Shown here: positions 11,292-45,837 of the stretch, piece by piece | Layout of the letters: every line of letters begins with the position of its first letter | Position numbering within the stretch: position 1 is the first letter of the stretch | DNA from: Clostridiales bacterium | Lineage (GTDB): Bacteria; Bacillota; Clostridia; Peptostreptococcales; Anaerovoracaceae | Length of the DNA: 64,000 nt | Direction of reading: 5' to 3' | Assembly: GCA_015258265.1 (NCBI GenBank) | Contig: JABZIP010000005.1 | Span: 11,521-75,520, forward strand | Made by a program: the position numbers and the translations under genes | Notes under the pieces: model-generated | What the model was told of the DNA's origin: nothing | Seen by the model: only the letters and a program-made list of their open reading frames with translations | Databases searched by the model: none

Positions 11292-11417
11292 TAAATACCT
11301 CCTTAAACGCCTTATTTGTTAGCAATATTTTATCATATTACGCCAAAAAAGTCACTTAAGGAACATTATTTAAACAAAAGTTATTTCAACCGCGCAAATA
11401 CCTTGCTTCAATTCAAA

Positions 11418-11957
11418 TCAATTATACCCGCAATAATACGCTTCTCTTTTCAGTTCTCCTGCTGCCGTCACCAATTTATCTAATGAATAATTCCTATCTA
11501 AATTACCCTTAAATATATTCAGATAGTCAGTACAAGCCGTGCTGTTTAGCGGAATTTCGTTCAAAAGCCGACAAATCTTCTTAGCTATATTTTCCTCGTT
11601 ACTTGCCATTTGATATTTCAATGCTATTTCCATATCATCGTTGATATAAAGCATATTCATTGACAATTCCAATTTTCTCAAATCGAACATATAATTTTCC
11701 GCCCTGCGCAAATTTAAACATAATTTTTCTAAAACTCCCAGTAATTTCAACGGCGTATCTAAATCTTCCGCAGCAACTTTTCTAAAACCTGCATCGTCAA
11801 TAAAGCTGTAAATAGTATCCCCTACGACACTAAAACTTTGCTTTAAAAATACACCATGCTCCCCCTTTGCCAAAATATTCATTTCAAAATCGGCAAGTCG
11901 CTTGCGTTCGTATTGTGCCTCCATATCATACACCCCCACAGATGCTGCAAGGCGCAA
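11418..11957 (-). CDS. hypothetical protein at distal end of Tad pilus operon
   Basis: 179 aa ORF, no recognisable domain and no TM segment. Overlaps the upstream gene by about 30 nt, so the true start may be internal (MEAQYERK...). Confidence 0.45.
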   Translation of the reverse strand: MRLAASVGVYDMEAQYERKRLADFEMNILAKGEHGVFLKQSFSVVGDTIYSFIDDAGFRKVAAEDLDTPLKLLGVLEKLCLNLRRAENYMFDLRKLELSMNMLYINDDMEIALKYQMASNEENIAKKICRLLNEIPLNSTACTDYLNIFKGNLDRNYSLDKLVTAAGELKREAYYCGYN

Positions 11958-12711
11958 ACCCTTTTTTCTCAGCCTCCACCTTTTCCATCTCTATCACATA
12001 TTTATCCACCGCATTGCATGATCCTCTATGATATACATCTCCGCTCTTATAAAAGCAATACACGCATCCTCCCATGCTAACAGATTTTGCGTTACACAAT
12101 TTACACGGTTTAAACCGTGCTCTGACTTTTTTATCTAAAACCGTTCTTGTTGCGTAATTCTGTATGTACCTACAATTCTTGCAATGATATTTTTCACCGG
12201 CTCGTGGAAATACCCAAACTTTTTGCGAGTCTTCCTCTTCTTCAAGTAAATCAAAGCCTTTGGGATTCTCATAATCATCTTGCCCGACAAATGCTCTCGT
12301 AAGCATATGTTCCTTCAAAAATATAGTACCTGCCATAGGCATACCAAGTTTCGGTTCCATAGAATAATCAACATCAAACGAAATCAAATTGTTAATACCG
12401 TGCCTTTTGTATCTATACCAAAATTTTTTTACTGCCACATCGAAAATCTCCGGATTTTCATGCACGATACGCCTTTCCAGTTTTTGCGTAAATGCAAGCG
12501 CCTCAATCTTTCCCACAGCAGTATAAGAATGTATAGCAAGCAGCCTCGCCTCATCCGCTGCACTATGCTCGACCGATTCACTTGCCGAATTTACCTTAAG
12601 CATAAAAGCAAGCGACAATATCGCTATTATTACAATTGGTAACAATATCGCTGTTTCAAGAGTTAAACTACCTTCTTTACACTTAATATATCTATCAATA
12701 ATTCTGAACAT
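11926..12711 (-). CDS. TadE-like pseudopilin with C-terminal tandem Cys4 zinc-ribbon-like modules
   Basis: N-terminus EGSLTLETAILLPIVII matches the TadE/TadG N-terminal motif. C-terminus carries two CxxC-(~25 aa)-CxxC units. Confidence 0.6.
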   Translation of the reverse strand: MFRIIDRYIKCKEGSLTLETAILLPIVIIAILSLAFMLKVNSASESVEHSAADEARLLAIHSYTAVGKIEALAFTQKLERRIVHENPEIFDVAVKKFWYRYKRHGINNLISFDVDYSMEPKLGMPMAGTIFLKEHMLTRAFVGQDDYENPKGFDLLEEEEDSQKVWVFPRAGEKYHCKNCRYIQNYATRTVLDKKVRARFKPCKLCNAKSVSMGGCVYCFYKSGDVYHRGSCNAVDKYVIEMEKVEAEKKGFAPCSICGGV

Positions 12712-13945
12712 TTTGATGCCTTTTCCCGTTCACAAGTACATTGTATGCAAGCCCCGTATAGCAATCCTCTATGAAAAAATCTTCGTCATCACATCCTTGC
12801 AAGTTAATTTGTATTAAATCCATGCTCCTATATATCTTTTTCTCCTCCTTTTGCGCCGCAAGGACCAGCCTCAAATACTCATCATAACTCATCCCGCTTG
12901 TATCCGTAGGAACAATATACCCCCTCGAATCATCCGATTTTTTAGCCACAATACCGTATATTTTATCCTTTATCGCACCAAGTCCCACTGCCCACTGCAT
13001 ATCAGTTTTAGCAAATGCAACATTTTTCTTATCGAGAATCAGCTTTACATCGTTTGAGGTTTCCGCTATTGCCCATGCTTCTGCTATAATTACAGCCGTA
13101 GCAACCGCTGCAACACCCGGCGTGAGAATTTCCGCCAGCTCTGTTATTTCTTGCATTTTTTTCGGATTTGCATAAATATGTGCAGAATTGAGTGCCAATC
13201 GCATTATCCAAAAATCTCGCTTAAAGGCTTCTAAGTTAGCAGCATCACTTAATTTTCCATATATTATATATTCTATTTCGTTTTGGAAAAATGTATAGAT
13301 CTTGCTGCTATTTTTATCGTATGTGTTGAAATTTTTCTCTATATACATATCCATGCAAAAATTCTCAATCGAAATTTTTCCTGTAGGCACAAGTTCCGTT
13401 ACATTGGAAAATATACTCGTTACAGCCTCTTTTCCATAAGTGTTTGACGGCAATTTGCTAATCAAGCGCTTATTTCTAATTACACCTTCACTATCTTCGC
13501 TTTTCCCTTTATTTTCCTTTTTGACAATCGACGGATATTTCAAACTTTCAAGAGCCTCTTTCTTAAAATTATCAGGTTCTATAAGTGCAAATTCATCTAA
13601 AATCACCGTACACGATTCAAGTTTAGGCTTAACCAAAGCAAAACTTTTAGCCTCTTTTTTAGAACGGAAATTTTCCAAAATATAAAATTTTAATTTGTCT
13701 TCCGTATTGTTATAAAAATCTTTAAACGCAAATATCCCATAGTCATCTTTCAATGCAGCATGAAACTCCGACAAAATAGCGCGCCCCGATGTTTGGAGCA
13801 CGCTTTCCTCATATGAATAGTTAGTGAAATTTGCTCCCGCATATACAAACACTACCGTAAGCATTAACATCGCCGAAAAAATCAATGCCAAAAGCACCGA
13901 TGAATTGCCTTTCTTGCTGAAAATACAAATTCCTATACCATTCAT
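12695..13945 (-). CDS. membrane-anchored Tad pilus assembly protein (TadG-like, putative)
   Basis: 416 aa, single N-terminal TM helix, position inside the tad operon. No other recognisable domain. Confidence 0.45.
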   Translation of the reverse strand: MNGIGICIFSKKGNSSVLLALIFSAMLMLTVVFVYAGANFTNYSYEESVLQTSGRAILSEFHAALKDDYGIFAFKDFYNNTEDKLKFYILENFRSKKEAKSFALVKPKLESCTVILDEFALIEPDNFKKEALESLKYPSIVKKENKGKSEDSEGVIRNKRLISKLPSNTYGKEAVTSIFSNVTELVPTGKISIENFCMDMYIEKNFNTYDKNSSKIYTFFQNEIEYIIYGKLSDAANLEAFKRDFWIMRLALNSAHIYANPKKMQEITELAEILTPGVAAVATAVIIAEAWAIAETSNDVKLILDKKNVAFAKTDMQWAVGLGAIKDKIYGIVAKKSDDSRGYIVPTDTSGMSYDEYLRLVLAAQKEEKKIYRSMDLIQINLQGCDDEDFFIEDCYTGLAYNVLVNGKRHQNVQNY

Positions 13946-14364
13946 TTAATCACCATATCCAACTTTCTGATATACTTTTTTTCATCTATGTCATAAAGCA
14001 CCGAATAATGGCTGCGCTTCTTAGTAGAAAACGCTATCCCATAAGAGCTGTACTGTTTTGCCCTTATCCCTTCCAAAACCGTTTCTGTGCCTGTTCGTCC
14101 TCTTTTAATCGTATCGCCATACATGAACACTTGCTTTGAATACTTATCTTGTACCAGCGCCATCGAATTTGAAAATTCAAAACTTCCTATCTTATTGTCA
14201 GTCAAATTTTTTTCCTTCAATTCGATATTAAGTCCGGCTTTTGCCACGCTCGCCATATACATAGATATTATTATGCAAATTACAGTAATCATAGTCAAAA
14301 ATATCAAGGGATATATAAGCGATGCCTCCACAATAGCTCCGCCCTTTTTACATTTAATTTTCAT
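13942..14364 (-). CDS. TadE-like pseudopilin
   Basis: 140 aa, GGAIVEASLIYPLIFLTMITV TadE-family N-terminal motif. Confidence 0.65.
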   Translation of the reverse strand: MKIKCKKGGAIVEASLIYPLIFLTMITVICIIISMYMASVAKAGLNIELKEKNLTDNKIGSFEFSNSMALVQDKYSKQVFMYGDTIKRGRTGTETVLEGIRAKQYSSYGIAFSTKKRSHYSVLYDIDEKKYIRKLDMVIK

Positions 14365-14517
14365 CTAAAAACCCGCATTCATCAATCCTGCAAATATTTT
14401 TTCGACAAAATTGGTTATGTGGCTCTTAAAAAGCAAGCCTACACCGATAGCGATAGCTATAAGTATTCCAACTTGAACCATTTCCATTCCCTTTTTGCTT
14501 CTAAACATTTTCAACAT
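14365..14517 (-). CDS. flp: Flp/Fap family type IVb pilin
   Basis: Approximately 50 aa: MLKMFRSKKGMEMVQVGILIAIAIGVGLLF..., a short leader followed by a hydrophobic helix. GGGAGGA RBS 7 nt upstream. The ORF track's longer N-terminus (to 14562) overlaps tadC. Confidence 0.7.
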   Translation of the reverse strand: MLKMFRSKKGMEMVQVGILIAIAIGVGLLFKSHITNFVEKIFAGLMNAGF

Positions 14518-14536
14518 ACTTTCTTCCTCCCTTCTT

Positions 14537-15703
14537 TCACATATCGAGCATCGCCGGCGCAAGAGTTATTAAAATCAGAGATAAAAGCTGCATCGCAAGC
14601 GGTATGGTCAATTTTGTTTCAGCTACTCTTGCCCGTTCTTCCGCTCGCTTCCTTCTTTGATAAGACAGAAGCTCGCTTTCAGTTTGCATTGCCCGCACAA
14701 GCTCTGTCCCTCTATTGATATTATCGCTTATCACATTAACAACCCTTATAAACTCTTTATTTTCCGTTCGCTTAGAGAATTTTTTCAATTCTACAATTAC
14801 AGAAGCATTGCTTTCCTTAGACTTTTGATTTATTTTCCAAAGTTCATCGTAAAAATACGATTGACAATTTGATATGCTGCCATAAGCAACAGTTTTCTCA
14901 AATGCCGATGTAAATACCATTCCTGCATTTATGAGTAGCACCAATTTATTAAAGAATTCCGACAATTCTCGTTCAACCGATTCTGCTGCCTTTTTTTCCT
15001 CTCTTTTGAACCTTTCGTACCTACCCGCATATACTAACACCAGTCCTAAAATACCTGCAATCAAAATCACTATGTATGTCCTGTCTTTTTTGCTCCTCCA
15101 CGATAGTTGCTTTATACTTCCCGCTTCTTTCGGCAGTTTGATTACATCTCTATCGTCCTTTGCTCCTATAGTATATAATTTAAGTTTAAGTTCATCATCA
15201 GCGCTCTTTCGCCTTGCCGCAAGCAGGCGCTTTTCTTCCTGCTCGCGTTGCTTTTTCACATATCCCTTTGGGTTTACTAAAAGCAATACTTTCTTATCGA
15301 TTTTTTCTTTTTTCGATTTTCCCGATACCACAAGCTCCAAGTTTTTCGGTACTTCTTCCGCAATCTTTCTACTCACATACTGCCTACCGTTTTTCTCAAA
15401 AACTATTTCCTCATCATTTAAAACTATGTTTATGACAAAACAAGTAATTAACATAGTAGCGATAACTAAAATCAGAAAATATCTTTTGCAAATTTCGCTC
15501 CTGTGTCTTTCAATCTTCGAAAAATCCGCTTCATCTCCGCAAACCTTATAAAGTAATCTTCTGAATTCCTCCTCTTGCCCCGTAAACCTCGCGGGTAGGA
15601 CTTTGGATATTTTTTTAGAAATCTCATCCAAACTATTGCTCAATTTTCCGTCATTCGAAATAAAGCTATTATCGTTTTTTAAACTCATTTTAAAGAATTT
15701 CAT
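14537..15703 (-). CDS. tadC: Tad pilus assembly protein TadC (T2SS F domain) with extended N-terminal region
   Basis: C-terminal approximately 150 aa are a GspF/T2SSF-like domain with TM segments. N-terminal approximately 230 aa are Lys/Glu-rich between two TM helices. Confidence 0.7.
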   Translation of the reverse strand: MKFFKMSLKNDNSFISNDGKLSNSLDEISKKISKVLPARFTGQEEEFRRLLYKVCGDEADFSKIERHRSEICKRYFLILVIATMLITCFVINIVLNDEEIVFEKNGRQYVSRKIAEEVPKNLELVVSGKSKKEKIDKKVLLLVNPKGYVKKQREQEEKRLLAARRKSADDELKLKLYTIGAKDDRDVIKLPKEAGSIKQLSWRSKKDRTYIVILIAGILGLVLVYAGRYERFKREEKKAAESVERELSEFFNKLVLLINAGMVFTSAFEKTVAYGSISNCQSYFYDELWKINQKSKESNASVIVELKKFSKRTENKEFIRVVNVISDNINRGTELVRAMQTESELLSYQRRKRAEERARVAETKLTIPLAMQLLSLILITLAPAMLDM

Positions 15704-16470
15704 ATTTCAATATCCATTATCCTTCCCATCACATAATAAGCTGCTGCGGTAATAGCAAGTGCAAGTGTCATTATCAACATTCCTATTCCCGTATGATACA
15801 GCTTGTCCAAATACCCGGGAGACATCAAGTTAAGAAAAACTATTATCACAAGCGGCATTAAACTGATAATTTTTCCCTCAACACGCTTTTGCGCTGTCAA
15901 TGTTTGAATTTCTCTTGATACATTTAATCTATTAACCAAAATTTGCGTTGTATTCAAAATCACCTGTTTCACATCAGCCCCCGTACTTCTACAAATGGAA
16001 TAAGTTTCAGCAAAACTGATTATTTCGGCAATCCTACTCCTATACGCAAAATCCTTTAATAGTTCCTCCTCATTGGCATGACTTTCTTTTATAGCATTTA
16101 TCATTAAAGAAAGCTCCTGCATGATAGGCTCGCTATCGTTATAAATCAAACTCAAACTGCCTTCAGCTTCTAACAGCGCCTCCGCCATTTGTCTCCCCGA
16201 GCTTATAGATGCATCCAGCGCATATAGCAAGTCCCGAAAACTATACCTAAGCCTTTCTGAAATTTGCCGCAACCTATAAGCCTCGTAAAATCTCTTAAGC
16301 GGTACAGAAAGCAAAGAAAAAACTACAGACACGATAATGTTTCCATAAAAAATCACTCCGACCACCATAAATGCGGATATGCATTTCATATAATAATCTA
16401 CCGTTTCCTTTTTAGATAACCTGTAAACCGTATAATTCGGTTTCTTATTATCTAACTCTCCTTCGCCCAT
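15700..16470 (-). CDS. tadB: Tad pilus assembly protein TadB (T2SS F domain)
   Basis: 256 aa polytopic protein with T2SSF-like domain. Alternative start at about 16389 (MKCISAF...) would remove the overlap with cpaF. Confidence 0.7.
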   Translation of the reverse strand: MGEGELDNKKPNYTVYRLSKKETVDYYMKCISAFMVVGVIFYGNIIVSVVFSLLSVPLKRFYEAYRLRQISERLRYSFRDLLYALDASISSGRQMAEALLEAEGSLSLIYNDSEPIMQELSLMINAIKESHANEEELLKDFAYRSRIAEIISFAETYSICRSTGADVKQVILNTTQILVNRLNVSREIQTLTAQKRVEGKIISLMPLVIIVFLNLMSPGYLDKLYHTGIGMLIMTLALAITAAAYYVMGRIMDIEI

Positions 16471-17828
16471 AATTCCTCCTCTTTAAGCCCACGAAGTATC
16501 ATTTTTCTGATATTTTTCATCTTATTTCCCGTTCGCTGCAGCCCTTTTTCCTTATCATACAGGAATATTTCGTTCAACACATAATCGGAGCCGTCATGTC
16601 CCAGTATCTCTGTAATTTCAAGCACTTTTCTACTTTTATCCGCCATTCGGCTCAAATGCACCATTACATCTATCCCTTCAACAATCTGTCCTCTTATCGC
16701 GTCTATTGGAAAATCCGCCGCTTGCATTACCATAGTTTCAAGTCTTTTCAACATTCCCTTTACAGAATTACCATGTCCTGTAGAAAGTGAACCGTCATGC
16801 CCGGTATTAAAAGCATTCAGCATATCAAGCACTTCCTTGCCTCTCACTTCACCGACAATTATCCTGTTAGGTCGCATCCTCAGACTGCTTCTTATAAGCT
16901 GCTGCATATCGACCTCGCCCATACCCTGAACATTAGATTGTTTGCATTCCATTCGCACCAAATTCTCAATGCCGATAATTTGAAGCTCCGCAGCATCTTC
17001 TATAGTTATCACTCGCTCATCCTTCGGAATATACGACGAAAGCACATTAAGCATGCTCGTTTTGCCGCTTCCTGTTCCTCCACTTATAAAAACATTCGAA
17101 CCGAACCTCACCAATTTTTCCAAAAAATCAGCAGCCTCTTCCGTAATGCTTCCAAACCCTATCATATCTTTCATATCATAGGCTTTCTCAGGAAATCTCC
17201 TAATCGTAAGCGCAGGTCCGTTCAGCGCCACATTCTTATAAACGGCATTCACCCTTGATCCGTCTAAAAGTCTGGCATCTACTATAGGATTTAATTCGTT
17301 TATCTCTCTGTGGACTCTCGCCGCTATCCTCCTAATGATTTCCTCGAGCTCCTCAACATTCGAAAAACTTTTCCCCGTATTTATAAGAGTACCGTCGCGC
17401 TCCACAAAAATGTTTTCCGTGCCGTTCACCATTATCTCCGTAACTTTCTTATCTTCCGTAAATGGATACAATAGTCCGACATCGCAGCGAACCGAAAAGT
17501 AAACTTGCCTAATCAGATTGTCTTTTTCTCGAAAATTCAAATCTTTCGTAAGCTCACTGTCAAGCAATAATCTTTCGATAAATTCAAATGCCGCTTCTTC
17601 GCTTTCAAAACTTTCGCCGACACTCATGGCTTTCCTCACAAAAGAGAGTGCCTCAGTCCTGACCTCATTATCAAGTTTCACCATTCCGTAATCCAAATCC
17701 ATAATTGCGTTTTCTTCCTTTGCTTGCAATTTATTCCTGTTATATACATAATAAAACAGCTGCAATAGAATTGCAACTGTTTTAATTCGACTTTTTTCGA
17801 CATGCCTGTGGATAACTTCCTCCGGCAT
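16452..17828 (-). CDS. cpaF: CpaF/TadA family pilus assembly ATPase
   Basis: 458 aa, Walker A GGTGSGKTS, VirB11/CpaF signature ITIEDAAEL, His box. Confidence 0.88.
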   Translation of the reverse strand: MPEEVIHRHVEKSRIKTVAILLQLFYYVYNRNKLQAKEENAIMDLDYGMVKLDNEVRTEALSFVRKAMSVGESFESEEAAFEFIERLLLDSELTKDLNFREKDNLIRQVYFSVRCDVGLLYPFTEDKKVTEIMVNGTENIFVERDGTLINTGKSFSNVEELEEIIRRIAARVHREINELNPIVDARLLDGSRVNAVYKNVALNGPALTIRRFPEKAYDMKDMIGFGSITEEAADFLEKLVRFGSNVFISGGTGSGKTSMLNVLSSYIPKDERVITIEDAAELQIIGIENLVRMECKQSNVQGMGEVDMQQLIRSSLRMRPNRIIVGEVRGKEVLDMLNAFNTGHDGSLSTGHGNSVKGMLKRLETMVMQAADFPIDAIRGQIVEGIDVMVHLSRMADKSRKVLEITEILGHDGSDYVLNEIFLYDKEKGLQRTGNKMKNIRKMILRGLKEEELWAKES

Positions 17829-17858
17829 ACCATTTTGGGCCTACCTTAAATCGGTAAA

Positions 17859-18242
17859 CTATTTGATTTCAGTTTTCCAAAGACCGTGCAAATTGCAGTA
17901 TTCATAAACTGCCAGCGGCTTTTCACCTTCGCTTAGTAGGAACTCTGCGCACGGTTTTTCGCCGGGTTTAAGATCCTTTCTATAAGCCCCTTTGCTAGTT
18001 TCCAAATAGATGAACATAATATAATGCTCCTCAAGCATAGGATGCTCAACCTCTCCAACAACTGCTGTAACTTTGTTACCCTCAACTGTTACTACCGGTG
18101 TGTGCTTTTCCAAAGCGGCATCTACCGTATTTGCAACAAGCTCCTTCATTTCCTCACCGCAACAGACAAGTTTGTCGTTGAACTCTCCAAAAACTTCCAA
18201 TATATGTCCACCGTTTGCACATTTAAAAAATTTATTTGCCAT
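17859..18242 (-). CDS. dfx: desulfoferrodoxin-type superoxide reductase with degenerate N-terminal centre I
   Basis: 127 aa; SOR centre II ligands present (EKHTP, HxxxxH, CNLH). N-terminal domain has C-x4-H...CC instead of CxxC...CC. Confidence 0.75.
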   Translation of the reverse strand: MANKFFKCANGGHILEVFGEFNDKLVCCGEEMKELVANTVDAALEKHTPVVTVEGNKVTAVVGEVEHPMLEEHYIMFIYLETSKGAYRKDLKPGEKPCAEFLLSEGEKPLAVYEYCNLHGLWKTEIK

Positions 18243-18332
18243 TTTAAACCTCCATATTATCTAATGTGTTGTAACTAGTTTATACACCAATTTTCTGCAC
18301 TAATAACACTAATAACGGAAGTTAATTTTTTG

Positions 18333-18962
18333 TCAATTTTGCGCACCGGCAAGAGCAGCTTTAACCGCTCCTTTGATGCCGTTTGAACTGTAAGTAGCTC
18401 CGGCAACCGCATCCACATCCGCACTTTGTGCTGCCAAGATTTTACCGATTACCGCCTTTGCATCATCGATATACGGAGAATCCTCTTTGTGCGAAATAAT
18501 ACTTATTGACTTGATTGCATCCGCCTTCAATACAACCGATACCGTAATATTATCGACATATCCTTTGGCACTTCCCGTAAAAGTTCCGTCTTTGTACTTT
18601 TGCGCAGGAACTGTAGGTTCCGCCTTTTCCGGTTCGGTTTTCAATATTTCTTTCTTTTCAGGCTCTGCTTTAGCAGTTGCCGTTTTTTCCGATTCCGCCT
18701 TTACGGATTTTGATTTTTCAGCTTCATCCGCCGGCTTTGCTTCCTGTTTTTCTACCGGTTTGTCTGCAGTTTTTTCTTCCGATTTTTTTGCTTCTGCCGT
18801 AGGTTCCTCCTCTTTTTTTTGCGTTTCGCTTTCCTGCTTTTCGGAAACTGCCTTCACAGTCTCACTTTTATCCCCTTCGATTTTATCAGTTTTTTCACAA
18901 CCCGACAAAAATACGCTTACACAGATTGCCAGCACAAATACCAACAACTTGACTTTTTTCAT
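18333..18962 (-). CDS. FMN-binding domain lipoprotein (ApbE substrate type)
   Basis: Lipobox FLSGC, Lys/Glu/Ala-rich linker, C-terminal FMN_bind domain with flavinylation motif DAVAGATYSS. Start taken at MKKVKLL. Confidence 0.8.
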   Translation of the reverse strand: MKKVKLLVFVLAICVSVFLSGCEKTDKIEGDKSETVKAVSEKQESETQKKEEEPTAEAKKSEEKTADKPVEKQEAKPADEAEKSKSVKAESEKTATAKAEPEKKEILKTEPEKAEPTVPAQKYKDGTFTGSAKGYVDNITVSVVLKADAIKSISIISHKEDSPYIDDAKAVIGKILAAQSADVDAVAGATYSSNGIKGAVKAALAGAQN

Positions 18963-19047
18963 AATCTCCTCCATATACATTTTTTAATTTCATCCACGTT
19001 TATATTTTTTATTTCATTCTTTTGCTCGCATACTTGCTTCAGAGCAC

Positions 19048-19752
19048 CTAATGTTTTTCGCTTTTTTGCCCTAGCGCCTTTCTGATTCTCAAAAATGCGT
19101 ACATACCGAATACAACCGTATAAATGGCAGAGTCGATAACATAATGCCAAAATACGTCGTAATGCTCAAGTTGCCGCATTTGCAGAGCTATTGATACAAA
19201 AATCAACATTACATGAATATATATGAGCATATAGAACGGATACGCCAATCTTTGCAGTTTTTTCCAACTTTTCGCTTTCATCTTTTTCCTTACGCTCTTA
19301 AATGATGTGATCATCAAAGGCAACATAACAGCATCCAAAACTATCGTCAGGATAGTAGCAATTACAAAAGGTGTACTCAAGCGCTCTCTTGATGTAAAAA
19401 GCCACACTATATAATTTTTCCCATAGAAAAAATTGTGCACAAGTGTCAATATACAAGCTATAATCGAAAGCTCTGCACGAACCGACATCAGCCGTATCTT
19501 GATTTGTGTACCGTTTTTAAATATAGCAGCCCACATCACAAGTGTAAAAAGTGCAGTCGCCACTATTCCCCGTTCAAACAGCATAGATATCTCATGAAGC
19601 AGGGCATTTGTACGCATAATCTCAAAGCCTGCCGCCGATATGCAAAATATGACAAATGCACCTATGTAGTAAACAGGTGCGTATTTTTTAATAGATTTGT
19701 GCAAAAACATCACAACGGCAAGTAAAACCACCGTAGTTAAAATAAATTTCAT
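19048..19752 (-). CDS. ferric-reductase-like transmembrane (MsrQ/YedZ-type, di-heme b) protein
   Basis: 234 aa, 6 predicted TM helices with conserved His in TM helices (HNFFYG, YIHVML). Lies immediately upstream of the FMN-binding lipoprotein. Confidence 0.6.
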   Translation of the reverse strand: MKFILTTVVLLAVVMFLHKSIKKYAPVYYIGAFVIFCISAAGFEIMRTNALLHEISMLFERGIVATALFTLVMWAAIFKNGTQIKIRLMSVRAELSIIACILTLVHNFFYGKNYIVWLFTSRERLSTPFVIATILTIVLDAVMLPLMITSFKSVRKKMKAKSWKKLQRLAYPFYMLIYIHVMLIFVSIALQMRQLEHYDVFWHYVIDSAIYTVVFGMYAFLRIRKALGQKSEKH

Positions 19753-19849
19753 AGTACATCCTTATTTGTTTTATATACTTTAACTTTATAATCTTTAAAT
19801 ACTATAATAAAAAATTAAACTTTTTAAATTTTTGTGTTTAGTCTGCAAT

Positions 19850-19873
19850 AGGAGTGGCTGAAAAGCCACTCCT
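19850..19873 (-). terminator. 10-bp perfect stem-loop (AGGAGTGGCT-GAAA-AGCCACTCCT) 8 nt downstream of the SLH gene stop; weak U-tract
   Basis: Seen directly in the sequence; there is no strong T-run on the minus strand. Confidence 0.4.
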
Positions 19874-19880
19874 AAATTTG

Positions 19881-22094
19881 TTAAGGTTTAGAAATCCATA
19901 AATCATTTTTTTCACCCAATAATTTTCTGAGTTCACCATTACCATTTAGCATGTCATCAAAGTTTTCTATATTAATACTAATAACTATATTAGTTCCTCC
20001 TATAACTCTAACCCTTTTTATCTTTAAATCTGTATGACTTATTGCTTGCCCAGACTTATTATAAAACTGAATGTTATCGGCATTTATGCCACTTAAACTT
20101 GAACCCAAAGTTTGAAAATCTTCTTGTTTAAGTTGATATCTGGCTTTATTTTTTACTAATGTAATTTTTACTTTTTTCCCATCCTTAGAAATTTCCAAAT
20201 AATCAGGTACATTATTAGCATTCGACACATCAGCTGCCTCTATCGTTATTTTGTGTTCATAAAATACACTGTCATCTTCTTTATATGCGATTTTTAAGCT
20301 TATCTGTTTGCCTGCATCATTCGGATCATCTGTTATAACATCTCCTATATTCAAAGGTGAACCATTTTTCGTTATAGTCAAATAATTTGTGTAATTTAAC
20401 TTGTTCACATTTTCGCTATATTTATCCTCATTTTCAGCAATCAATTTTACAGCAAAATCATCACCAATTTCAAATTTATCGCCTACCTTAACTTTGTTTT
20501 TTATTCCGGTAATATATTCAATGCCTATAATTTTCCTCTGCTCTTCCTCCGTAACATTCGTAAAATCTTTTTTATAATCGATACGATATGTTTCAAATTC
20601 AAACATTTTTTCTGCATTTAAATTGTGTGTGTTTTCTTGCAACAAGGTGTCTTTCTCCGATTGTGCAACATCTATATATAGACTTCCGCTTTTTTTATGC
20701 GCATCACCTCTATAATGCTTATCGCCTACCTCTTTCAGCGTTACCCTGCTACCGTCGCTCTTGATAAGCTCGATATCCTGCAATTCTTTGTGCGCTAAAT
20801 CAATTCCCACCTCGTATCGGAACTCCGAATTTTTTCCGTGGCTCACAACTATGTCTTGATAAGTAATTTCTTGCGGTGATTTTTTATCCTTCAAAACAAG
20901 CCTTATTTTCTCAATTTGCACATATATCGGTTTTACCGAAAATTGCACTTCTTTCAAAAGCTCCATGCCGGATTCTTTGTGTTTCCAATGTATTTTATAA
21001 TTTGCACGATAATTTGTATTGTCAGTTCTATTTATCGGTTTTGTAATATCTATTTTTTCGCCGTTTTTGTCGGTTACGAATACTTCAATCCCCTCGCTGT
21101 CAAAGTCCTTGGCTTGTATCTCGCGCCCTAATTTCAGTACCGAGTTGCGATTTGATTTTGTAACGGGATTTGGTAGAGAAGTGTGCACCGGAATCAATCT
21201 GATACTTGCCGGCAAAAGCTCAATTTTCTCACCGAAATATTGCGGAACGCTCTCATACGCATGATCTGCCAAGAATTTTTCTTTTTCCTTTTCATCCGAT
21301 AATGCAGCCAGCGCTTTCTTTTGCTCCGCAGTAAGCTCATGCTTTTCAAATTTACCCGGTGCATTTATCAACCAAAAGCCCTTGTATTTTTGCTGTTTTC
21401 CACTTTTCGCATCATTGAGCGCATTTTTGAAGCCTTTTCTAAAACCTTCCGCACTTTTTGTCGAACCGCTAACAGCATCAACAATAGCACCAACACCCTT
21501 TTTCTCATTAAATTGCTCATAAATTTTCTTTAATGGTGTTTTCTTTACATAATCTACTACTCTTTCCGAACCGCCTGTATATTTCCAATCATCATCATCG
21601 TCCACGAAAAACTCAAGCGCCGCGTCTACAACGGTCCCCCTTGCTATGGATATTTTCGCTATATTCTTTTTAGGGAAATCGAATCCTTTATCTCCATTTT
21701 TGCTTTGTCTTTCCGCACTCGAAAATCCATACCCCTCACCGTAATATGTGCCATCTTTAAAAGTCGAATCTATTTCCGATTCTTGCGGTGCATGATACTC
21801 TCCCAGTTTTAAATTCATAGCCTTTAATTGAGAGCCTGTTTTAACCTCAATTTCGTATTTAATTGAAGGTTCGAATATATACTCCCCGTTTTCATTTTTA
21901 GCTGCAAAATTTATTTTGCTCGAATCTGTATTTATTATTCGTTTTGCTATTTCACCTCTATATACAGCTTCTTTTCCTGTATCAACCGGCTTGGCTTTTA
22001 TTTTTACCTCTTCTACACTGCTCACAAGCATTTTTAGAAGTCCGGAATTTTGATCGCCTGCAACCGCCAAATCTCCCTTTTGGTTCATAGTCAA
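19881..22094 (-). CDS. SLH/FMN-binding surface protein paralog 1, C-terminal segment after frameshift
   Basis: 737 aa. The +1 frame continues the interrupted FMN_bind domain (SNGLVRAVENAVIAGN), then a third FMN_bind (VSGSTKSAEGF) and Ig-like repeats. TTG/ATG start overlaps the upstream stop. Confidence 0.6.
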   Translation of the reverse strand: MTMNQKGDLAVAGDQNSGLLKMLVSSVEEVKIKAKPVDTGKEAVYRGEIAKRIINTDSSKINFAAKNENGEYIFEPSIKYEIEVKTGSQLKAMNLKLGEYHAPQESEIDSTFKDGTYYGEGYGFSSAERQSKNGDKGFDFPKKNIAKISIARGTVVDAALEFFVDDDDDWKYTGGSERVVDYVKKTPLKKIYEQFNEKKGVGAIVDAVSGSTKSAEGFRKGFKNALNDAKSGKQQKYKGFWLINAPGKFEKHELTAEQKKALAALSDEKEKEKFLADHAYESVPQYFGEKIELLPASIRLIPVHTSLPNPVTKSNRNSVLKLGREIQAKDFDSEGIEVFVTDKNGEKIDITKPINRTDNTNYRANYKIHWKHKESGMELLKEVQFSVKPIYVQIEKIRLVLKDKKSPQEITYQDIVVSHGKNSEFRYEVGIDLAHKELQDIELIKSDGSRVTLKEVGDKHYRGDAHKKSGSLYIDVAQSEKDTLLQENTHNLNAEKMFEFETYRIDYKKDFTNVTEEEQRKIIGIEYITGIKNKVKVGDKFEIGDDFAVKLIAENEDKYSENVNKLNYTNYLTITKNGSPLNIGDVITDDPNDAGKQISLKIAYKEDDSVFYEHKITIEAADVSNANNVPDYLEISKDGKKVKITLVKNKARYQLKQEDFQTLGSSLSGINADNIQFYNKSGQAISHTDLKIKRVRVIGGTNIVISINIENFDDMLNGNGELRKLLGEKNDLWISKP

Positions 22095-23380
22095 AGATGA
22101 TTCGTCGATATTACCTGCGATAACCGCATTCTCAACAGCTCTAACCAGTCCGTTGCTCCTGATACCGCAGATATTTTCTCTGTCGATGTTATATCTGCAA
22201 ATTGTTTCAATATGGAGCTTTTCACACTCGCCAAATAGCTTACATCCTCGCTATTTTCCTCTATAACAACATTTTTTATCACATTGTCTTTTACGGTTAC
22301 CTTTACATTCATCTGCCCCCTATATCCTTGCGCAGAACCTGAATACTCCTTATCCGACAATTTTTTCAGATATCTTGAAAGGTCAATACCGCTATAAAGC
22401 GCTGTCGAATGTTTTCTATTGGCGCCTGTACTTCCTACCGTTCCGATGCTCCCCTCTCCTTTTTGCTGTGATATGCAATCCTTTACAGCGTCCTTGATTG
22501 CATTGCACGAAAGAGTTGCTCCGGAAATATTGTCTATTCCTTCCACGCTTTGTTTTTCAATAATTTGTGCTATAATAGCTTTTGCTCTGCTTAAATACGA
22601 GCCTGTTTCATTGTCGGAAATTATCTTAATATCAACTATTTTCCCTTTATCAAAAAGCACCTTCAGCTTCATCGTACCGCCGTAGCCGGCTCCCGTGCCT
22701 TCAAATGCCTGCTCGTTGATATTTTTGAGTACCTCTGCCATTTTTCTTTCGCTCTTTGAAAGAATCAGAACCGCTTGTGCCCTACTTATGCCTTTCTTCG
22801 GATTCAATCTGTTAAATTCTCCGCTAATTACACCTGCTGCTACCAGTACCGATATAGCTTCCCTCGCATAATCCGATATAGCTCCCGCATCGGAAAATTT
22901 CGATATATCCGCGACTTTTTGTCCTTCTTTACCCTTTGGATAAGTGAGCCTATAAAGCATTACGAAAGCCTGTTCTCTGGTAATTGCAACTTCCGGCGAC
23001 ATAGTGTTCGCACCTGTCCCCTTCATGTACCCCGCCTGTAACGCCTTCGCCATGTCGGATCTGTACCATGCATTGCTACTTACATCCGTAAAATCGGATA
23101 TCTTGCTGCTTTCTTCAGAAAATTGCATGATTCTGTTGATTACCGCAGCATATTCAGCTCTGCTCATATTTTTATCAGGGAATACCCTCCCGCTTTCATC
23201 TCCTTTTAGATAGCCTTTTTTGTTAAAATCTTTAAGCGTATTTACCATCCAGTGTCCATCTATGTCCGACGGCATTATACCTTTGGCTTCCTCTGCATTT
23301 GCAGCTGTAAAAAATCCGGTCATTGATACAAATCCGAATACAAATGCAAAAGTCAAAATGGAAAGTCGTCTAATATTCAA
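22091..23380 (-). CDS. SLH/FMN-binding surface protein paralog 1, N-terminal segment (signal peptide, 3 SLH, FMN_bind 1, truncated FMN_bind 2)
   Basis: 429 aa. First approximately 220 aa are identical to the 24853..28551 protein. Ends ISAVSGAT followed by out-of-frame residues. Confidence 0.65.
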   Translation of the reverse strand: MNIRRLSILTFAFVFGFVSMTGFFTAANAEEAKGIMPSDIDGHWMVNTLKDFNKKGYLKGDESGRVFPDKNMSRAEYAAVINRIMQFSEESSKISDFTDVSSNAWYRSDMAKALQAGYMKGTGANTMSPEVAITREQAFVMLYRLTYPKGKEGQKVADISKFSDAGAISDYAREAISVLVAAGVISGEFNRLNPKKGISRAQAVLILSKSERKMAEVLKNINEQAFEGTGAGYGGTMKLKVLFDKGKIVDIKIISDNETGSYLSRAKAIIAQIIEKQSVEGIDNISGATLSCNAIKDAVKDCISQQKGEGSIGTVGSTGANRKHSTALYSGIDLSRYLKKLSDKEYSGSAQGYRGQMNVKVTVKDNVIKNVVIEENSEDVSYLASVKSSILKQFADITSTEKISAVSGATDWLELLRMRLSQVISTNHL

Positions 23381-23508
23381 TTTTGTTCCTCCTCAATATT
23401 TCATGTATTTTAGTTGTACTTTGTTAGCATATGCTAACTATACGAAGGGAATTATATCATTAGCCATAGGCAACTGTCAATATTTTGAACACAAAAAAAC
23501 ATTTGTGT

Positions 23509-23562
23509 CCAAATGAATTTATACATGTGTAAAAAAACAGGCTTGAATAAAATTCAAACCTG
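23509..23562. repeat. 54-bp direct repeat copy A, containing a bidirectional rho-independent terminator (A7-stem-T7)
   Basis: CCAAATGAATTTATACATGTGTAAAAAAACAGGCTTGAATAAAATTCAAACCTG; copy B at 24754-24806 has 3 differences. Confidence 0.8.
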
Positions 23563-23582
23563 TTTTTTTAATGCGTTTACGC

Positions 23583-24650
23583 TCACTCCAGCTCGCGCCT
23601 GGTTCTACGCATAAACTCAACTAATTGCTCTTTGGTCGGTAAATGGAGCATATATGTCGATACAAACAACTGATTATCCATACCTGATAAAGCATACTCG
23701 ACCATCTCAGTTCCCTTATCTGTACAAAGCAGAATACCTATCGGCAAATTGTCGCCTTCTACCATTTCATTCTTTTTATAGTACGCCACATAGGAATTCA
23801 ATTGCCCAAGATCCTCATGCTTGAATTCATCGTTCTTCAGTTCAATGATGACATTACAATGAAGCAACTTGTTATAGAAAACCATATCTATGAAATAATA
23901 CTTATCGTCTATTACAATTCTCTTTTGTCTGGCTTCAAAGCAGAAACCTTCACCTAGTTCAAGTATGAACTCTTGCAGATGATCTATTAAAGCCTGTTCC
24001 AGAACTGATTCAGATACCGCATCACCCGGATTCAGTCCAAGGAATTCAAATGTAAACGGATCTTTTATTGATAATGCTGTGCTTCTGGCATTATCCTCTG
24101 ACAGCTTCATCAACAACTCTGGCTTCTTACTGATTCCAGCTCGCACGAATAAATTCGTCTTAATCTGTCTGCGCAGTTCTCTAACGCTCCAATTACATTT
24201 AATCGCCTCTGCTTCATAGAAGTATCTTTCCATCGGGTCATCAAGAATCATAATTTCCCTTATGTGTGAAAACGAAAGATTGTCAACCAGCAATTCCGGT
24301 TCCATAATAAATTCGTGCGACAATGTCGCACTTTTTTGAAAATCAAGCAACCCCAATTGGTGCGACACTGTCGCACCAATCTGCGGATACATAACATAAA
24401 ACTGTCTGCACCACTTGAATAGCGTAGAATTTAATCCCTTTTGATCGATCTGCCTCTCCAGATTGTTTAAAAGATTAGTTCCATACTCTGCTCGATCACT
24501 ACCACCTTGCTCATACTCAACTATATAGTAGCCAATAGCCCAGTTCCTAAGTGTCATCAGTTTGTTAACGGCATGCTTTGCCACGTTGCCCGCCTCGTCA
24601 TTGAGCTTTTTTATGCTGTCTGCAAGCGTCATGAATTTGATATCCGACAT
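23583..24650 (-). CDS. yhcG: YhcG/DUF1016 family PD-(D/E)XK nuclease
   Basis: 355 aa. C-terminal IDMVFYNKLLHCNVIIELK...GQLNSYVAYY matches the YhcG_C PD-(D/E)XK core (D...ELK); N-terminal YhcG_N-like domain. Confidence 0.75.
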   Translation of the reverse strand: MSDIKFMTLADSIKKLNDEAGNVAKHAVNKLMTLRNWAIGYYIVEYEQGGSDRAEYGTNLLNNLERQIDQKGLNSTLFKWCRQFYVMYPQIGATVSHQLGLLDFQKSATLSHEFIMEPELLVDNLSFSHIREIMILDDPMERYFYEAEAIKCNWSVRELRRQIKTNLFVRAGISKKPELLMKLSEDNARSTALSIKDPFTFEFLGLNPGDAVSESVLEQALIDHLQEFILELGEGFCFEARQKRIVIDDKYYFIDMVFYNKLLHCNVIIELKNDEFKHEDLGQLNSYVAYYKKNEMVEGDNLPIGILLCTDKGTEMVEYALSGMDNQLFVSTYMLHLPTKEQLVEFMRRTRRELE

Positions 24651-24753
24651 AATGATTCCTCTCGTTTCTAATAAGAAATTTCCCTATTTCGTTTATATTT
24701 TGATTATATCTTATTAGCACTCCTGTTACAACTACATTATCTCACGACAATCT

Positions 24754-24806
24754 CCAAATAAATTTGTACATGTGTAAAAAACAGGCTTGAATAAAATTCA
24801 AACCTG
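24754..24806. repeat. 54-bp direct repeat copy B, acting as terminator of the upstream SLH gene
   Basis: CCAAATAAATTTGTACATGTGTAAAAAACAGGCTTGAATAAAATTCAAACCTG; hairpin followed by a T6 run on the minus strand. Confidence 0.8.
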
Positions 24807-24852
24807 CTCTTTAATTTTAGTTTACTGCAATTTGCTTATTGGGATTGCGCTA

Positions 24853-27800
24853 TTAATCTTCGTCATGTCCTTCTTCGCCGCCGTTATTTTCGCCATCCTG
24901 ACTGTCATCATCACCCTCTTGGTCATCACCCTGATCATCGCCGTCATCCTGATTGCCCTGCTCATCCTCGTTATCCTTTTGGTCGTCTTCGTTTGCAGGT
25001 GGATTTGGCTGTTCACCCGGAGTGCCCGGGTTAGCAGGCTCTTGTGGCTTTTCAGGTACAGTTGATTGTTCGCTATCCGACGATTTTTTTACCATAAGAT
25101 ATTCCTTGGACTTAATCTCCAATCTTAAATCTCCATACTCAAATGTTACCTTTAAATTCTTTAAAAATGCATTTAACGGTGTCAATACAGTCTCATTTTC
25201 AGGATCTGTAGATATTCCATAATCATCAAAGAATTCAGGAGTTACATCTTTTACCTTTCCATCACTACTTTTCAATGTAACAATCATGCCCGCAACATCA
25301 AATTTTTCTCCAATAAAGTACTGCATTTTGGGTAGTTTTTTGATTTCTATAGAAGTTGTTTTCTCAATATCATAATCATCTTGAGGCTCTTGCGACTCTT
25401 CTTTTTCTACATCAAAAGTGATTTTGTAGAAAAAGTTTACATTAAGGTCTTTTTCGTGATCCTTCTCATCCATAGAAAATTTTAATTCTTTGTTTTCATC
25501 ATTTTTATCTATTTTCAATTCATCTTTTGCGATGATATACTTAGAATCCGAATTCGCTGAATCTGTAGGATTTTTTCTAACAATTCTTAACTTAAGATTT
25601 TTTCCTACAAAATTATCGTTCCATTTAGCTCTGCTAATAGCTACTTTTTGATGAACATTTATGTTATTTTCATCGTACGGTGCACCCGGAGTTGGCTTTG
25701 CCTTTTCAGGATTATCTACGTCTTTCCAATCCTCATTTCCAATTTTATATTGCATCCCCACAGTCCAATTTTCATTATATTCATCATTGACTACTATCGA
25801 AAATACATCTTCCCTAAGTGAAGGTCCATGCTCTATCAATATAGGTACTGCATATGTAGGAAAATCTTTGAGCTTCATACCATCAGTTATAAGCGTTCCG
25901 TTTTTCGTTTTCATGGTTATGCCATTTCCTGCAAATTGGTCAATCCCGATTTCACTTATAGTGCCGTTTTTGTTTATAAGTTTTACTTTTAGTTTGCTCA
26001 AGTTTAAAGGTAATATCCTATTTGTGAAAACTTTTTTGTCCAAAATTCCTGTAACTTCAATCTCATTAATTTCATTATTGGTTTCATTATCATGAGCTGA
26101 AAGTTCAAGCGCATTACCAACAGAATTTGCAATACCGCCTGCCGTCAATGTCGCTCCCGAAACGCTGTCAAACAGATCGTCTTTATCATACTCTCCTGCA
26201 AGATATGTCTTTACCGCTTTTGAAATTTCTCGAACCACATCAGTTGAAGAAGCCGAGTTTGAAATTTCTTGAACTATTTTTGCACAATTTTTACCTAAAA
26301 GTTCTGTAGCTTTTGCATTTCTTTCAGAATTGATCTTAATATTTTCAATTTCACCGGTATATTTATAACAACACCTAACGACAGCAATATTTTTGCGAGC
26401 ATTTTCACCGGAAATAAAATTTAATAATCCTTCTGCTTTTTCTATATAGCCCGGATCTTCACTTATTAAGCTATCGCCCGGAAGTATCTCAATGCTCTTA
26501 ACCACTCCATTTGTAATTTTTACCTTTGTCTTTACCGTTGCTGTATCATTAAAACCTTTACCAACTCCTATAAATATGCCATCCTTAAGTTTTCTATCCA
26601 CAGTCAGTTCTTTTATAAGTTTGTCCGATGCAGTTTTAGCCGCCTTTTCACTTGCCTCAAGTGTTGATGCAGCATCATTTGAGCCGTTTTTAACTACATT
26701 AGGAGATTGTAAAACAAGTTTAAATCCATCACTTTTATATTCTTTTTGTTCTTTGTTAAATTCACTTACCGATTTAGGCAATCTTAAATTTTCAACCTTA
26801 CTTGTTGAAGTAATGGTTACATTTCCATTCTTTGCCTTTGCACGCAACGTTTTTACATTGGCAGCTATGGTAACTTCCTTATCTCCGGTTTCTAAATCTT
26901 TTGCTAATTCTATTTGCTTTATTTTAGCATTTTCAAGCGTTTTGATAATTGCGGGTGTTTTAACAAGTACATTTTCCAGCTTCGTCGAACTGTCTACTAC
27001 AAGTCTTGGTCTTTTGCCATTATTCTTAGCTATTATAACATCTCCCTCGACTTTCGTATTTTTCAAATATATACCATGCGATCCTCCACCATTTATTATC
27101 AGTTTCCCGCTTATTGTAACATTCTCCAATATTACATCGCCATCGGCAACTTTTTCTGATACTGTAATATCCTTTTCTATTGTCACATTTTTTACTGCAA
27201 CTTTATTACCTACTAAGTTGGCCGATATGATTTTTTTCCCATTTCCATCATACTGCCCGCTTATTGATTTTTTACCACCGGCGTTTTCAAGAGCATTTAC
27301 AACCGCATTAATAAGTCCTATGCTGCTTTTTGTTGCTCCGGATACCGTATCCACTTTAGTTGATTGTGTATTTATTATTTTTTGTATAATACCTTTTGCG
27401 CCTTCATCTCTTAAATAGCCTGCATCATCATGGTTCGCATATTCAATTTTGCTTATCTTTCCATCCTGCACAGTAACTTTCACACTCATAGAGTTTCTAC
27501 GGTATCCATCTGCCCTTCCCTCATACGTTCCATTATTCAGCTCTGCAAAATCAACTTCCTGTTTAGCTACAGCCACGCCACCACCTTTACTGCTTCCTGT
27601 GCTTCCGACAGTACCTATGCTGCCCTCCCCTTTTTGCTGAGATATGCAATCCTTGACAGCATCTTTTATTGCATTACAAGAAAGAGTTGCACCTGAAACA
27701 TTGTCTATGCCCTCTACGCTTTGTTTTGCGATTATCTGCGCTATGATTTTCTTTGCCCTTTCAAGATACGAGCCTGTTTCATTATCGGAAACTATCTTAA

Positions 27801-28551
27801 TATCAACTATTTTCCCTTTATCGAAAAGCACCTTCAGCTTCATCGTGCCGCCGTAGCCGGCTCCCGTGCCTTCAAATTCCTGCTCATTGATATTTTTGAG
27901 TACCTCTGCCATTTTTCTTTCGCTCTTTGAAAGAATCAGAACCGCTTGTGCCCTACTTATGCCTTTCTTCGGATTCAATCTGTTAAATTCTCCGCTAATT
28001 ACACCTGCTGCTACCAGTACCGATATAGCTTCCCTCGCATAATCCGATATAGCTCCCGCATCGGAAAATTTCGATATATCCGCGACTTTTTGTCCTTCTT
28101 TACCCTTTGGATAAGTGAGCCTATAAAGCATTACGAAAGCCTGTTCTCTGGTAATTGCAACTTCCGGCGACATAGTGTTCGCACCTGTCCCCTTCATGTA
28201 CCCCGCCTGTAACGCCTTCGCCATGTCGGATCTGTACCATGCATTGCTACTTACATCCGTAAAATCGGATATCTTGCTGCTTTCTTCAGAAAATTGCATG
28301 ATTCTGTTGATTACCGCAGCATATTCAGCTCTGCTCATATTTTTATCAGGGAATACCCTCCCGCTTTCATCTCCTTTTAGATAGCCTTTTTTGTTAAAAT
28401 CTTTAAGCGTATTTACCATCCAGTGTCCATCTATGTCCGACGGCATTATACCTTTGGCTTCCTCTGCATTTGCAGCTGTAAAAAATCCGGTCATTGATAC
28501 AAATCCGAATACAAATGCAAAAGTCAAAATGGAAAGTCGTCTAATATTCAA
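24853..28551 (-). CDS. giant SLH-anchored multi-FMN-binding surface protein (paralog 2)
   Basis: 1232 aa. Signal peptide, 3 SLH repeats, FMN_bind x2 (VSGATLSCN, VSGATKSS), a right-handed beta-helix-like repeat region, FMN_bind 3 (VSGATLTAGG), Ig-like repeats, and a 50-aa acidic D/E/Q/G C-terminal tail. Confidence 0.8.
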   Translation of the reverse strand: MNIRRLSILTFAFVFGFVSMTGFFTAANAEEAKGIMPSDIDGHWMVNTLKDFNKKGYLKGDESGRVFPDKNMSRAEYAAVINRIMQFSEESSKISDFTDVSSNAWYRSDMAKALQAGYMKGTGANTMSPEVAITREQAFVMLYRLTYPKGKEGQKVADISKFSDAGAISDYAREAISVLVAAGVISGEFNRLNPKKGISRAQAVLILSKSERKMAEVLKNINEQEFEGTGAGYGGTMKLKVLFDKGKIVDIKIVSDNETGSYLERAKKIIAQIIAKQSVEGIDNVSGATLSCNAIKDAVKDCISQQKGEGSIGTVGSTGSSKGGGVAVAKQEVDFAELNNGTYEGRADGYRRNSMSVKVTVQDGKISKIEYANHDDAGYLRDEGAKGIIQKIINTQSTKVDTVSGATKSSIGLINAVVNALENAGGKKSISGQYDGNGKKIISANLVGNKVAVKNVTIEKDITVSEKVADGDVILENVTISGKLIINGGGSHGIYLKNTKVEGDVIIAKNNGKRPRLVVDSSTKLENVLVKTPAIIKTLENAKIKQIELAKDLETGDKEVTIAANVKTLRAKAKNGNVTITSTSKVENLRLPKSVSEFNKEQKEYKSDGFKLVLQSPNVVKNGSNDAASTLEASEKAAKTASDKLIKELTVDRKLKDGIFIGVGKGFNDTATVKTKVKITNGVVKSIEILPGDSLISEDPGYIEKAEGLLNFISGENARKNIAVVRCCYKYTGEIENIKINSERNAKATELLGKNCAKIVQEISNSASSTDVVREISKAVKTYLAGEYDKDDLFDSVSGATLTAGGIANSVGNALELSAHDNETNNEINEIEVTGILDKKVFTNRILPLNLSKLKVKLINKNGTISEIGIDQFAGNGITMKTKNGTLITDGMKLKDFPTYAVPILIEHGPSLREDVFSIVVNDEYNENWTVGMQYKIGNEDWKDVDNPEKAKPTPGAPYDENNINVHQKVAISRAKWNDNFVGKNLKLRIVRKNPTDSANSDSKYIIAKDELKIDKNDENKELKFSMDEKDHEKDLNVNFFYKITFDVEKEESQEPQDDYDIEKTTSIEIKKLPKMQYFIGEKFDVAGMIVTLKSSDGKVKDVTPEFFDDYGISTDPENETVLTPLNAFLKNLKVTFEYGDLRLEIKSKEYLMVKKSSDSEQSTVPEKPQEPANPGTPGEQPNPPANEDDQKDNEDEQGNQDDGDDQGDDQEGDDDSQDGENNGGEEGHDED

Positions 28552-28777
28552 TTTTGTTCCTCCTCAATATTTCATGTATTTTAGTTGTACTTTGTTAGCA
28601 TATGCTAACCACACGAAGGGAATTATATCATTAGCCATCGGCAACTGTCAATATTTTGAACACAAAAAAACATTAATTTTTTCGAAAGAACAATATGTGT
28701 ATTTACAAAAAATAAGGAGATACCGTAGTTTCTCCCTATTTTTAAATTTAATACCCTATATACCATAAAGCGGTCTA

Positions 28778-45822: not shown

Positions 45823-45837
45823 CAAATACGAAAAGAA

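Follow-up and report, generated by a model that had tools for sequence, protein, structure and literature searches.

In a 64,000-nucleotide (nt) stretch of an uncultured Clostridiales bacterium (GenBank assembly GCA_015258265.1, contig JABZIP010000005.1, positions 11,521 to 75,520 of the forward strand; this whole stretch is called the window, and its own coordinates are used below), two neighbouring genes for surface proteins, A and B, begin with a nearly identical front end of promoter, signal peptide and anchor domains and continue into bodies that have diverged. In our reading, to which we give a probability of about 0.8, this front end has been homogenised by recurrent homologous recombination (gene conversion and occasional deletion) between two old tandem copies. 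The marks of concerted evolution were observed at the locus: the paralogues are more alike than the orthologues, the duplication predates the species split, the identity extends to silent and non-coding positions and stops at a sharp edge, and the tract ends vary. Ongoing gene conversion of the anchor and promoter module had been suggested in the initial annotation of the window, and is well supported by species-specific identity, silent-site identity, varied tract ends and a hybrid allele.

Gene A (24853-28551, reverse strand) encodes a protein of 1232 amino acids (aa) with a putative signal peptide, three SLH domains (PF00395, E 6e-24), three FMN_bind domains (PF04205, E 1e-32) and an acidic C-terminal tail; no exact match to this protein was found on record. 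Gene B, on the same strand, is represented by two open reading frames (ORFs): a 5' ORF of 429 aa (22091-23380), in which a putative signal peptide and three SLH domains precede FMN_bind 1 and a truncated FMN_bind 2, and a 3' ORF of 737 aa (19881-22094). In relatives the two ORFs share one frame. The frame is shifted by a 13-bp deletion (TTTTACGAGAAAC, between AAC...AAC) at 22155 (22154-22156, reverse strand), directly after the SGAT of FMN_bind 2. The 13 bp were intact in 8 of the 8 loci compared, including a twin contig of the window (L006), and in nearly all relatives gene B is undivided, with a length of 1159 or 1170 aa; the deletion may be genuine variation, or it may stem from polishing or from a minority strain. 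Of the "two giant genes" first described, gene A therefore stands at its full length and gene B is split here by the deletion. The similar domain content that had been described was confirmed, with three SLH domains and FMN_bind in both genes; beyond the shared front end, the two proteins are weakly alike, and only in their FMN_bind domains. In the translations, the flavinylation motif [S/T]GA[S/T] reads SGAT in every FMN_bind domain of gene A and SGAT or SGST in B, and the N-terminus (MNIRRLSILTFAFVFGFVSMTGFFTAANA/EE) reads, by eye, as a Sec signal. Judged by these domains, the SGAT motifs and an ApbE gene in the window, A and B are probably SLH-anchored, multi-flavinylated extracytosolic proteins. 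The acidic, low-complexity C-terminal tail (about 60 aa) was seen in gene A alone, and the counterpart of gene A in a sister species (A' of contig L012) is without it.

An ungapped comparison at an offset of 5171 delimited a direct repeat of 1,079 bp with 95.9% identity, made of copy B (22425-23503, reverse strand), the front-end module of gene B, and copy A (27596-28674, reverse strand), the front-end module of gene A. Each copy runs from 123 bp 5' of the start codon to about codon 319 and holds a sigma-70 promoter, a ribosome-binding site (RBS), a TTG start, the signal peptide, all three SLH domains, the first FMN_bind domain and a linker. Outside the repeat, identity at the same offset was at background (about 20-40%), and the pairwise comparison recommended in the initial annotation thus placed the peak of identity in the repeat, with background elsewhere in the genes. 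Within the repeat lies an exact core of 723 bp (22716-23438 in copy B and 27887-28609 in copy A, both on the reverse strand), and the longer interval 22595-23503 differs from copy A at 9 of 909 bp. The interval 22690-23504, which had been called nucleotide-identical, is essentially so, with 6 mismatches in 815 bp; the shadow ORFs put forward as confirmation are identical, and say nothing beyond the DNA identity itself. The upstream non-coding part of the repeat, first given as about 120 bp, measures 123 bp (23381-23503), and 120 of these 123 bases are the same in both copies (3 mismatches). Self-BLAST of the window returned no third copy of the repeat, and the sole other shared piece was a 65-bp terminator copy; no inverted repeats of at least 40 bp were found across 18-32 kb.

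The identity ends in a tail of about 170 bp (22425-22594, reverse strand; codons 263-319, the end of FMN_bind 1 and the linker), which is about 80% identical to copy A and in which almost all differences are at third codon positions (28 synonymous and 4 non-synonymous codon differences). Third positions differ between the copies in 1 of 222 cases in codons 1-222, against 30 of 57 in codons 263-319 (Fisher p = 2e-23). When 45 mismatches were permuted over the 1,079 sites, the longest identical run in 200,000 permutations was 318 bp, and the observed run is 723 bp. The identity pattern of the repeat is far beyond chance. The estimate of 85-90% identity over some 250 bp of the first FMN_bind domain was also accurate (40 mismatches in 265 bp, or 85%, in 22425-22689), and to the substitutions already listed (E225A, V254I, E264S and K268A, all confirmed) A275E and V285I were added. 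Read in this way, the tail is a record of old divergence under purifying selection, and the same divergence appears to have been erased from the core and the non-coding leader. The G+C content of the module (22000-23000 and 27500-28500) was 0.41-0.44, versus 0.30-0.36 in the gene bodies (20000-20500 and 25000-27000); this could come from amino-acid content or from GC-biased conversion.

The age of the pair was assessed in a sister species, in which a 170-kb contig (L012) has the order OGG-A' (1218 aa)-B' (1195 aa)-236 aa-FMN_bind-desulfoferrodoxin-Tad pilus. Residues 621-1232 of A matched only A' (60%, a figure that refers to identity across the C-terminal 530 aa), residues 561-1170 of B matched only B' (72%), and the flanking orthologues of the window and L012 share 53-92% protein identity. 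On the strength of this same-order tandem pair with orthologous bodies, the pair is older than the species split, and a recent duplication is rejected. The module is homogenised species by species: its identity within a genome is 95.3% in the window (first 960 nt; core 100%) and 100% in L012, where A' and B' agree at every position of a 1,037-bp stretch (9965-11001 vs 13827-14863) and then fall to about 60-70% identity, and between genomes it is 72-73% (window species vs L012) and 69% (vs a third species, L011) at the nucleotide level. Homogenisation within each lineage is a robust result, because assembly collapse hides sparse differences and not 27% divergence. A search of genome contigs with the module (320 aa) found one relative only, L011 (71%), and did not find the window's own species. 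In three distant pairs of paralogues on the same contig (P0014/P0041, P0021/P0059 and P0031/P0037) the N-terminal modules are similar and, by eye, clearly non-identical, so homogenisation is seemingly not family-wide.

Loci of the same species were retrieved via yhcG, OGG and desulfoferrodoxin (Dfx), and the comparison with related strains that had been advised in the initial annotation yielded variation both in junctions and in copy number. The architecture of the locus was seen again in the second species and in over 10 assemblies that are independent of one another. In copy A, A-type sequence resumes at alignment column ~823 in the window, L005, L006 and L018, at column ~1006 in L002, L003, L004, L007 and L009, and at ~1054 in L008, and L010 is a mosaic; at least four classes of 3' junction were thus present among the copy-A sequences of the strains, and copy B was uniform. 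The 5' edges vary among strains as well (columns 35, 52, 100 and 126). The 3' junctions are reliably phased by short reads, because they lie in densely polymorphic sequence, and their variety indicates several tracts of independent origin. Most of the 3' extensions look like B-type sequence carried into copy A. In the 9 assemblies with both copies, 34 of 34 strain-variable core sites were the same in A and B; this sharing fits conversion, and taken alone it is a weak argument because of the collapse caveat treated below.

Seven loci (L016, L025, L014, L020, L023, L027 and L028) consist of OGG, one module and the B body, and are without exactly 5,171 bp (the A body and yhcG). These one-gene alleles are hybrids, with an A-type 5' flank and B-type 3' sequence; they occur with several flank haplotypes and are interspersed among two-gene alleles, and the B length variants of 1159 and 1170 aa were each found with both allele types. 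The one-gene contig of L025, assembled with MEGAHIT, is unbroken through the repeat, and an unbroken MEGAHIT contig implies that the graph had no branch there. In L016, the one-gene allele is on a 1.2-Mb metaFlye contig of PromethION data from human saliva, for which the source reads had a mean length of 13 kb (PMC7782811). The one-gene allele is the product expected of a crossover, or of single-strand annealing, between direct repeats. A further locus, L029 (Logan ERR15464603; 9001-10001), is without window positions 19564-28718, i.e. gene A, yhcG, gene B and part of the gene for a 234-aa membrane protein, and a further small deletion removes window 18898-19254; the locus is possibly a null allele, seen once, or a misassembly.

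The following mechanism would account for these patterns. In non-crossover events, one front end would be copied onto the other, whereby synonymous and non-coding differences would be reset to zero and the ends of the tract would differ from event to event. A crossover or single-strand annealing would result in the loss of 5,171 bp and in a hybrid gene in which the upstream flank of A and the module lead into the B body. On the 5' side the tracts would stop where homology ends, and on the 3' side where older divergence (about 20% or more) blocks strand exchange, and the modules downstream would escape and diverge. The enzymology is presumably that of a RecA-type pathway. Any selective benefit might lie in fitting both SLH anchors to a single cell-wall polymer, or in joint regulation of the two genes through promoters of one type.

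The alternative that survives best, although we judge it unlikely, is an artefact of assembly or polishing: the paralogous front ends would be real, and their exact identity and the sharing of single-nucleotide polymorphisms (SNPs) would come from collapse of the repeat, with a true identity of about 98-99%. The window belongs to a short-read contig (89,405 bp; proteins MBF0980291-303) of a metagenome-assembled genome (MAG), from which the exact identity of the core is not trustworthy, and the caution about assembly in the initial annotation was justified. A twin contig from the same assembly (L006; ENA ERZ2610424 NODE_48, 89,418 bp) differs from the window over 21 kb only at 10 repeat sites, alike in both copies (22790-22913 and 27961-28084, within the exact cores), and by the 13-bp indel. 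At these sites, the window haplotype is at least 5 substitutions away from every other assembly; the differences may reflect a collapsed copy difference, a strain mix or polishing. The reads of one sample thus hold two repeat-interior haplotypes, and the exact identity of the core is for that reason given "as assembled". Three contigs (L009, L010 and L019) are broken within the repeat, and in L001 it is interrupted by a gap of 100 N.

Several points weigh against the recombination that we propose. The 10-site difference between the window and L006 makes "exact" identity uncertain and weakens the argument from shared SNPs. Every locus with both copies was assembled from short metagenomic reads, with which an identical core of at least 700 bp is unphaseable and sparse differences may have collapsed, and short-read graphs cannot formally link a 5' flank to a gene body beyond the core. 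No two-copy locus was found among long-read or isolate sequences. Some of the short-read one-gene contigs could be mis-joins, and the direction, rate and recency of conversion are read from patterns. Collapse can, however, hide sparse differences only, and the identity would still be far above the neighbouring ~80%. The recurrence of the architecture in independent assemblies and in a second species argues against an artefact, as does junction variation that lies in dense, phaseable polymorphism. An artefact of this kind would alter the identity figure and leave the conclusion as it is.

Reciprocal exchange of modules, by unequal crossover, by allele replacement between strains or by cassette swapping, is a doubtful candidate for the main process. 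In its favour are the one-gene hybrids on several backgrounds, the finding of both B length variants with both allele types, and pairings of middle and C-terminal parts that differ across three species (A = alpha+a, B = beta+b, A' = beta+a, B' = beta+b and the L011 gene = alpha+b). A crossover between direct repeats, however, deletes or duplicates and never homogenises two copies that are both retained, and the nested 3' tract ends in retained two-copy loci are a signature of conversion. Exchange shares its machinery with conversion, and both probably occur. Cassette-like swapping of C-terminal parts, which the initial annotation had weighed equally, keeps a place only on the deeper time scale, in the module pairings of the three species; of a programmed cassette system there is no sign.

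It is about equally improbable that the front end is the recombination handle of a contingency locus, at which conversion, deletion and re-import would allow populations to switch between two-gene, one-gene and null states and to re-pair the anchor, middle and C-terminal modules of surface-exposed flavoproteins, with the polymorphism held by selection and not a mere noise of recombination. If this were true, selection could come from host immunity, from phage or from the redox niche.

A recent tandem duplication, either of one gene or only of its 5' part, after which the downstream regions diverged fast or were replaced, had been the first explanation in the initial annotation and is now very hard to defend. 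The copies are direct, close and in the same orientation, as such an event would leave them, but the pair with orthologous bodies in the sister species, whose flanking proteins are 53-92% identical, contradicts it; the codons adjacent to the core are near-saturated at synonymous sites, and the spacer and bodies have no residual similarity except the terminator copy (similarity is limited to 1,079 bp + 65 bp). Least credible of all is that purifying selection alone keeps the anchor module identical without recombination: function does constrain the SLH triad and the signal peptide, and the amino acids of the tail are conserved, but constraint on the protein cannot account for agreement at 221 of 222 third positions and at 120 of the 123 non-coding bases upstream, and the module is about 27% different between species.

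The homogenised segment includes the control region of both genes. A promoter-like site (TTGACA-18-TATAAT with the TG of an extended -10; 12/12 matches to the sigma-70 consensus) lies at 28622-28651 upstream of gene A and, with identical sequence, at 23451-23480 upstream of gene B (both on the reverse strand). The palindrome GTTAGCATATGCTAAC stands between the -10 hexamer and the RBS at 28594-28609 (gene A), and the same palindrome is found at 23423-23438 (gene B); the RBS AGGAGGAAC and the TTG start are present in both repeat copies. The upstream regions of three species were compared (window 23381-23503 and 28552-28674; L012 9850-10012 and 13712-13874; L011 9760-9925), and the layout is kept in all of them: a T-rich stretch, TTGACA-18-TGATATAAT, GTTAG-N6-CTAAC, the RBS AGGAGGAAC and TTG. 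The GTTAG-N6-CTAAC inverted repeat is placed just 3' of the -10, and its arms are kept in L012 and L011; it is possibly an operator or a hairpin of the leader (5' untranslated region). The palindrome was also considered as the mark of a wider regulon and rejected as such, with only two matches in the window, which is not above chance for a degenerate pattern. A scan of the whole window against Rfam at the gathering threshold gave no match, so no known RNA element accounts for the conserved upstream region.

Between the two repeat copies lies yhcG (23583-24650, reverse strand), which encodes a YhcG/DUF1016 PDDEXK nuclease of 355 aa. The 1,097-bp segment that holds it (24671-23575) has 90% nt identity to a gene of Eubacterium minutum ATCC 700079 (L013 9962-11058), where the homologue follows the ATP synthase operon beside UPF0236 transposase-like genes, a context unrelated to that of the window. 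The gene is missing from the A'-B' spacer of L012, and it looks like a laterally moved single-gene cassette. A 65-bp direct repeat (stem CAGGTTTGAATTTTATTCAAGCCTG and a T run; z -5.4 and -7.0) brackets yhcG: its first copy is the intrinsic terminator after gene A (24753-24815, reverse strand), and its duplicate follows yhcG and abuts repeat copy B (23508-23572, reverse strand). Both terminators are homologous to the single terminator in the A'-B' spacer of L012, and by this comparison the insertion of the cassette appears to have duplicated the gene A terminator. The nuclease was considered as a necessary driver of conversion and rejected: L012 is equally homogenised without yhcG, and the gene is therefore not needed for homogenisation. 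The complete genome of E. minutum ATCC 700079 was likewise tried as a long-read control and set aside, as it holds only the yhcG homologue and not this locus.

Downstream of gene B (window 10263-19752) are genes for a 234-aa membrane protein, a 215-aa FMN_bind protein whose N-terminal half is of low complexity, and a desulfoferrodoxin, a Tad/Flp pilus operon, and the gene for the ApbE flavin transferase (10263-11291, E 3e-85). The identity of the 234-aa protein as a ferric reductase or MsrQ was unconfirmed by Pfam; its NCBI name is ferric reductase-like and its C-terminal part gave a weak match to the MamZ model. Their content suggests that these genes may form a module for extracytosolic electron transfer or for oxygen detoxification. 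Elsewhere in the window, self-BLAST revealed a perfect 40-bp palindrome at 45836-45875.

One locus thus shows an old pair with a homogenised promoter and anchor and escaped bodies, replication of this pattern in a sister species, variable tract ends and a common one-gene allele. For users of MAGs and for annotators the repeat is a warning: short-read assemblies are broken or wrongly joined at it, and the contig exists in two public versions that disagree within it and at the 13-bp indel. Gene content at this multi-flavin wall-protein locus varies among strains of a single uncultured human oral species of the class Clostridia, and such variation matters when wall-anchored multi-flavin proteins are linked to phenotype.

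The tufA/tufB genes and the rRNA operons are the textbook cases of concerted evolution by ectopic gene conversion. The A/B locus resembles them in an identity that is higher within a genome than between species, in bounded tracts, in silent-site identity and, presumably, in dependence on homologous recombination. It differs from them in that only the 5' third and the promoter are homogenised and the rest is unalignable, and in that the products are surface proteins and not core machinery. The mechanism of gene conversion is reviewed in PMC3966226 and in part of PMC8223754. The babA/babB/babC genes of Helicobacter pylori are likewise surface paralogues with homologous ends and a variable middle, conversion chimeras and differences in gene content between strains (PMC4552749). 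The bab loci are dispersed and their conversion is coupled to CT-repeat phase variation, whereas A and B are tandem direct neighbours without a slippage tract, and a crossover between them deletes one gene.

In the sap family of Campylobacter fetus, a conserved anchoring 5' region is combined with variable 3' parts, and recombination takes place inside the conserved 5' region. A and B share with sap the joining of a common 5' anchor part to variable 3' parts; in sap, however, one promoter is moved by DNA inversion among silent cassettes, and here the copies are direct and each has its own promoter. The sap S-layer family is discussed in PMC4943207 and PMC4232325. The traits of a programmed cassette system of the sap or pilE-pilS kind were absent from the locus, in which neither copy is promoterless or silent and both have a 12/12 promoter and an RBS, and no recombinase or invertase was found in its flanks. 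Multi-flavinylated extracytosolic proteins with cell-wall-binding domains have been described as a class, together with their gene clusters (Meheust et al. 2021, PMC8238504), and A and B agree with that class in having an SLH anchor, an apparent signal peptide, more than one FMN_bind domain with motifs of the SGAT type, an ApbE gene in the window and, as a neighbour, the membrane protein that NCBI names ferric reductase-like. Homogenisation of paralogue front ends and copy-number polymorphism are not part of that description. Set beside these systems, the A/B locus is a case of ordinary concerted evolution, a clean further example that calls for no new mechanism.

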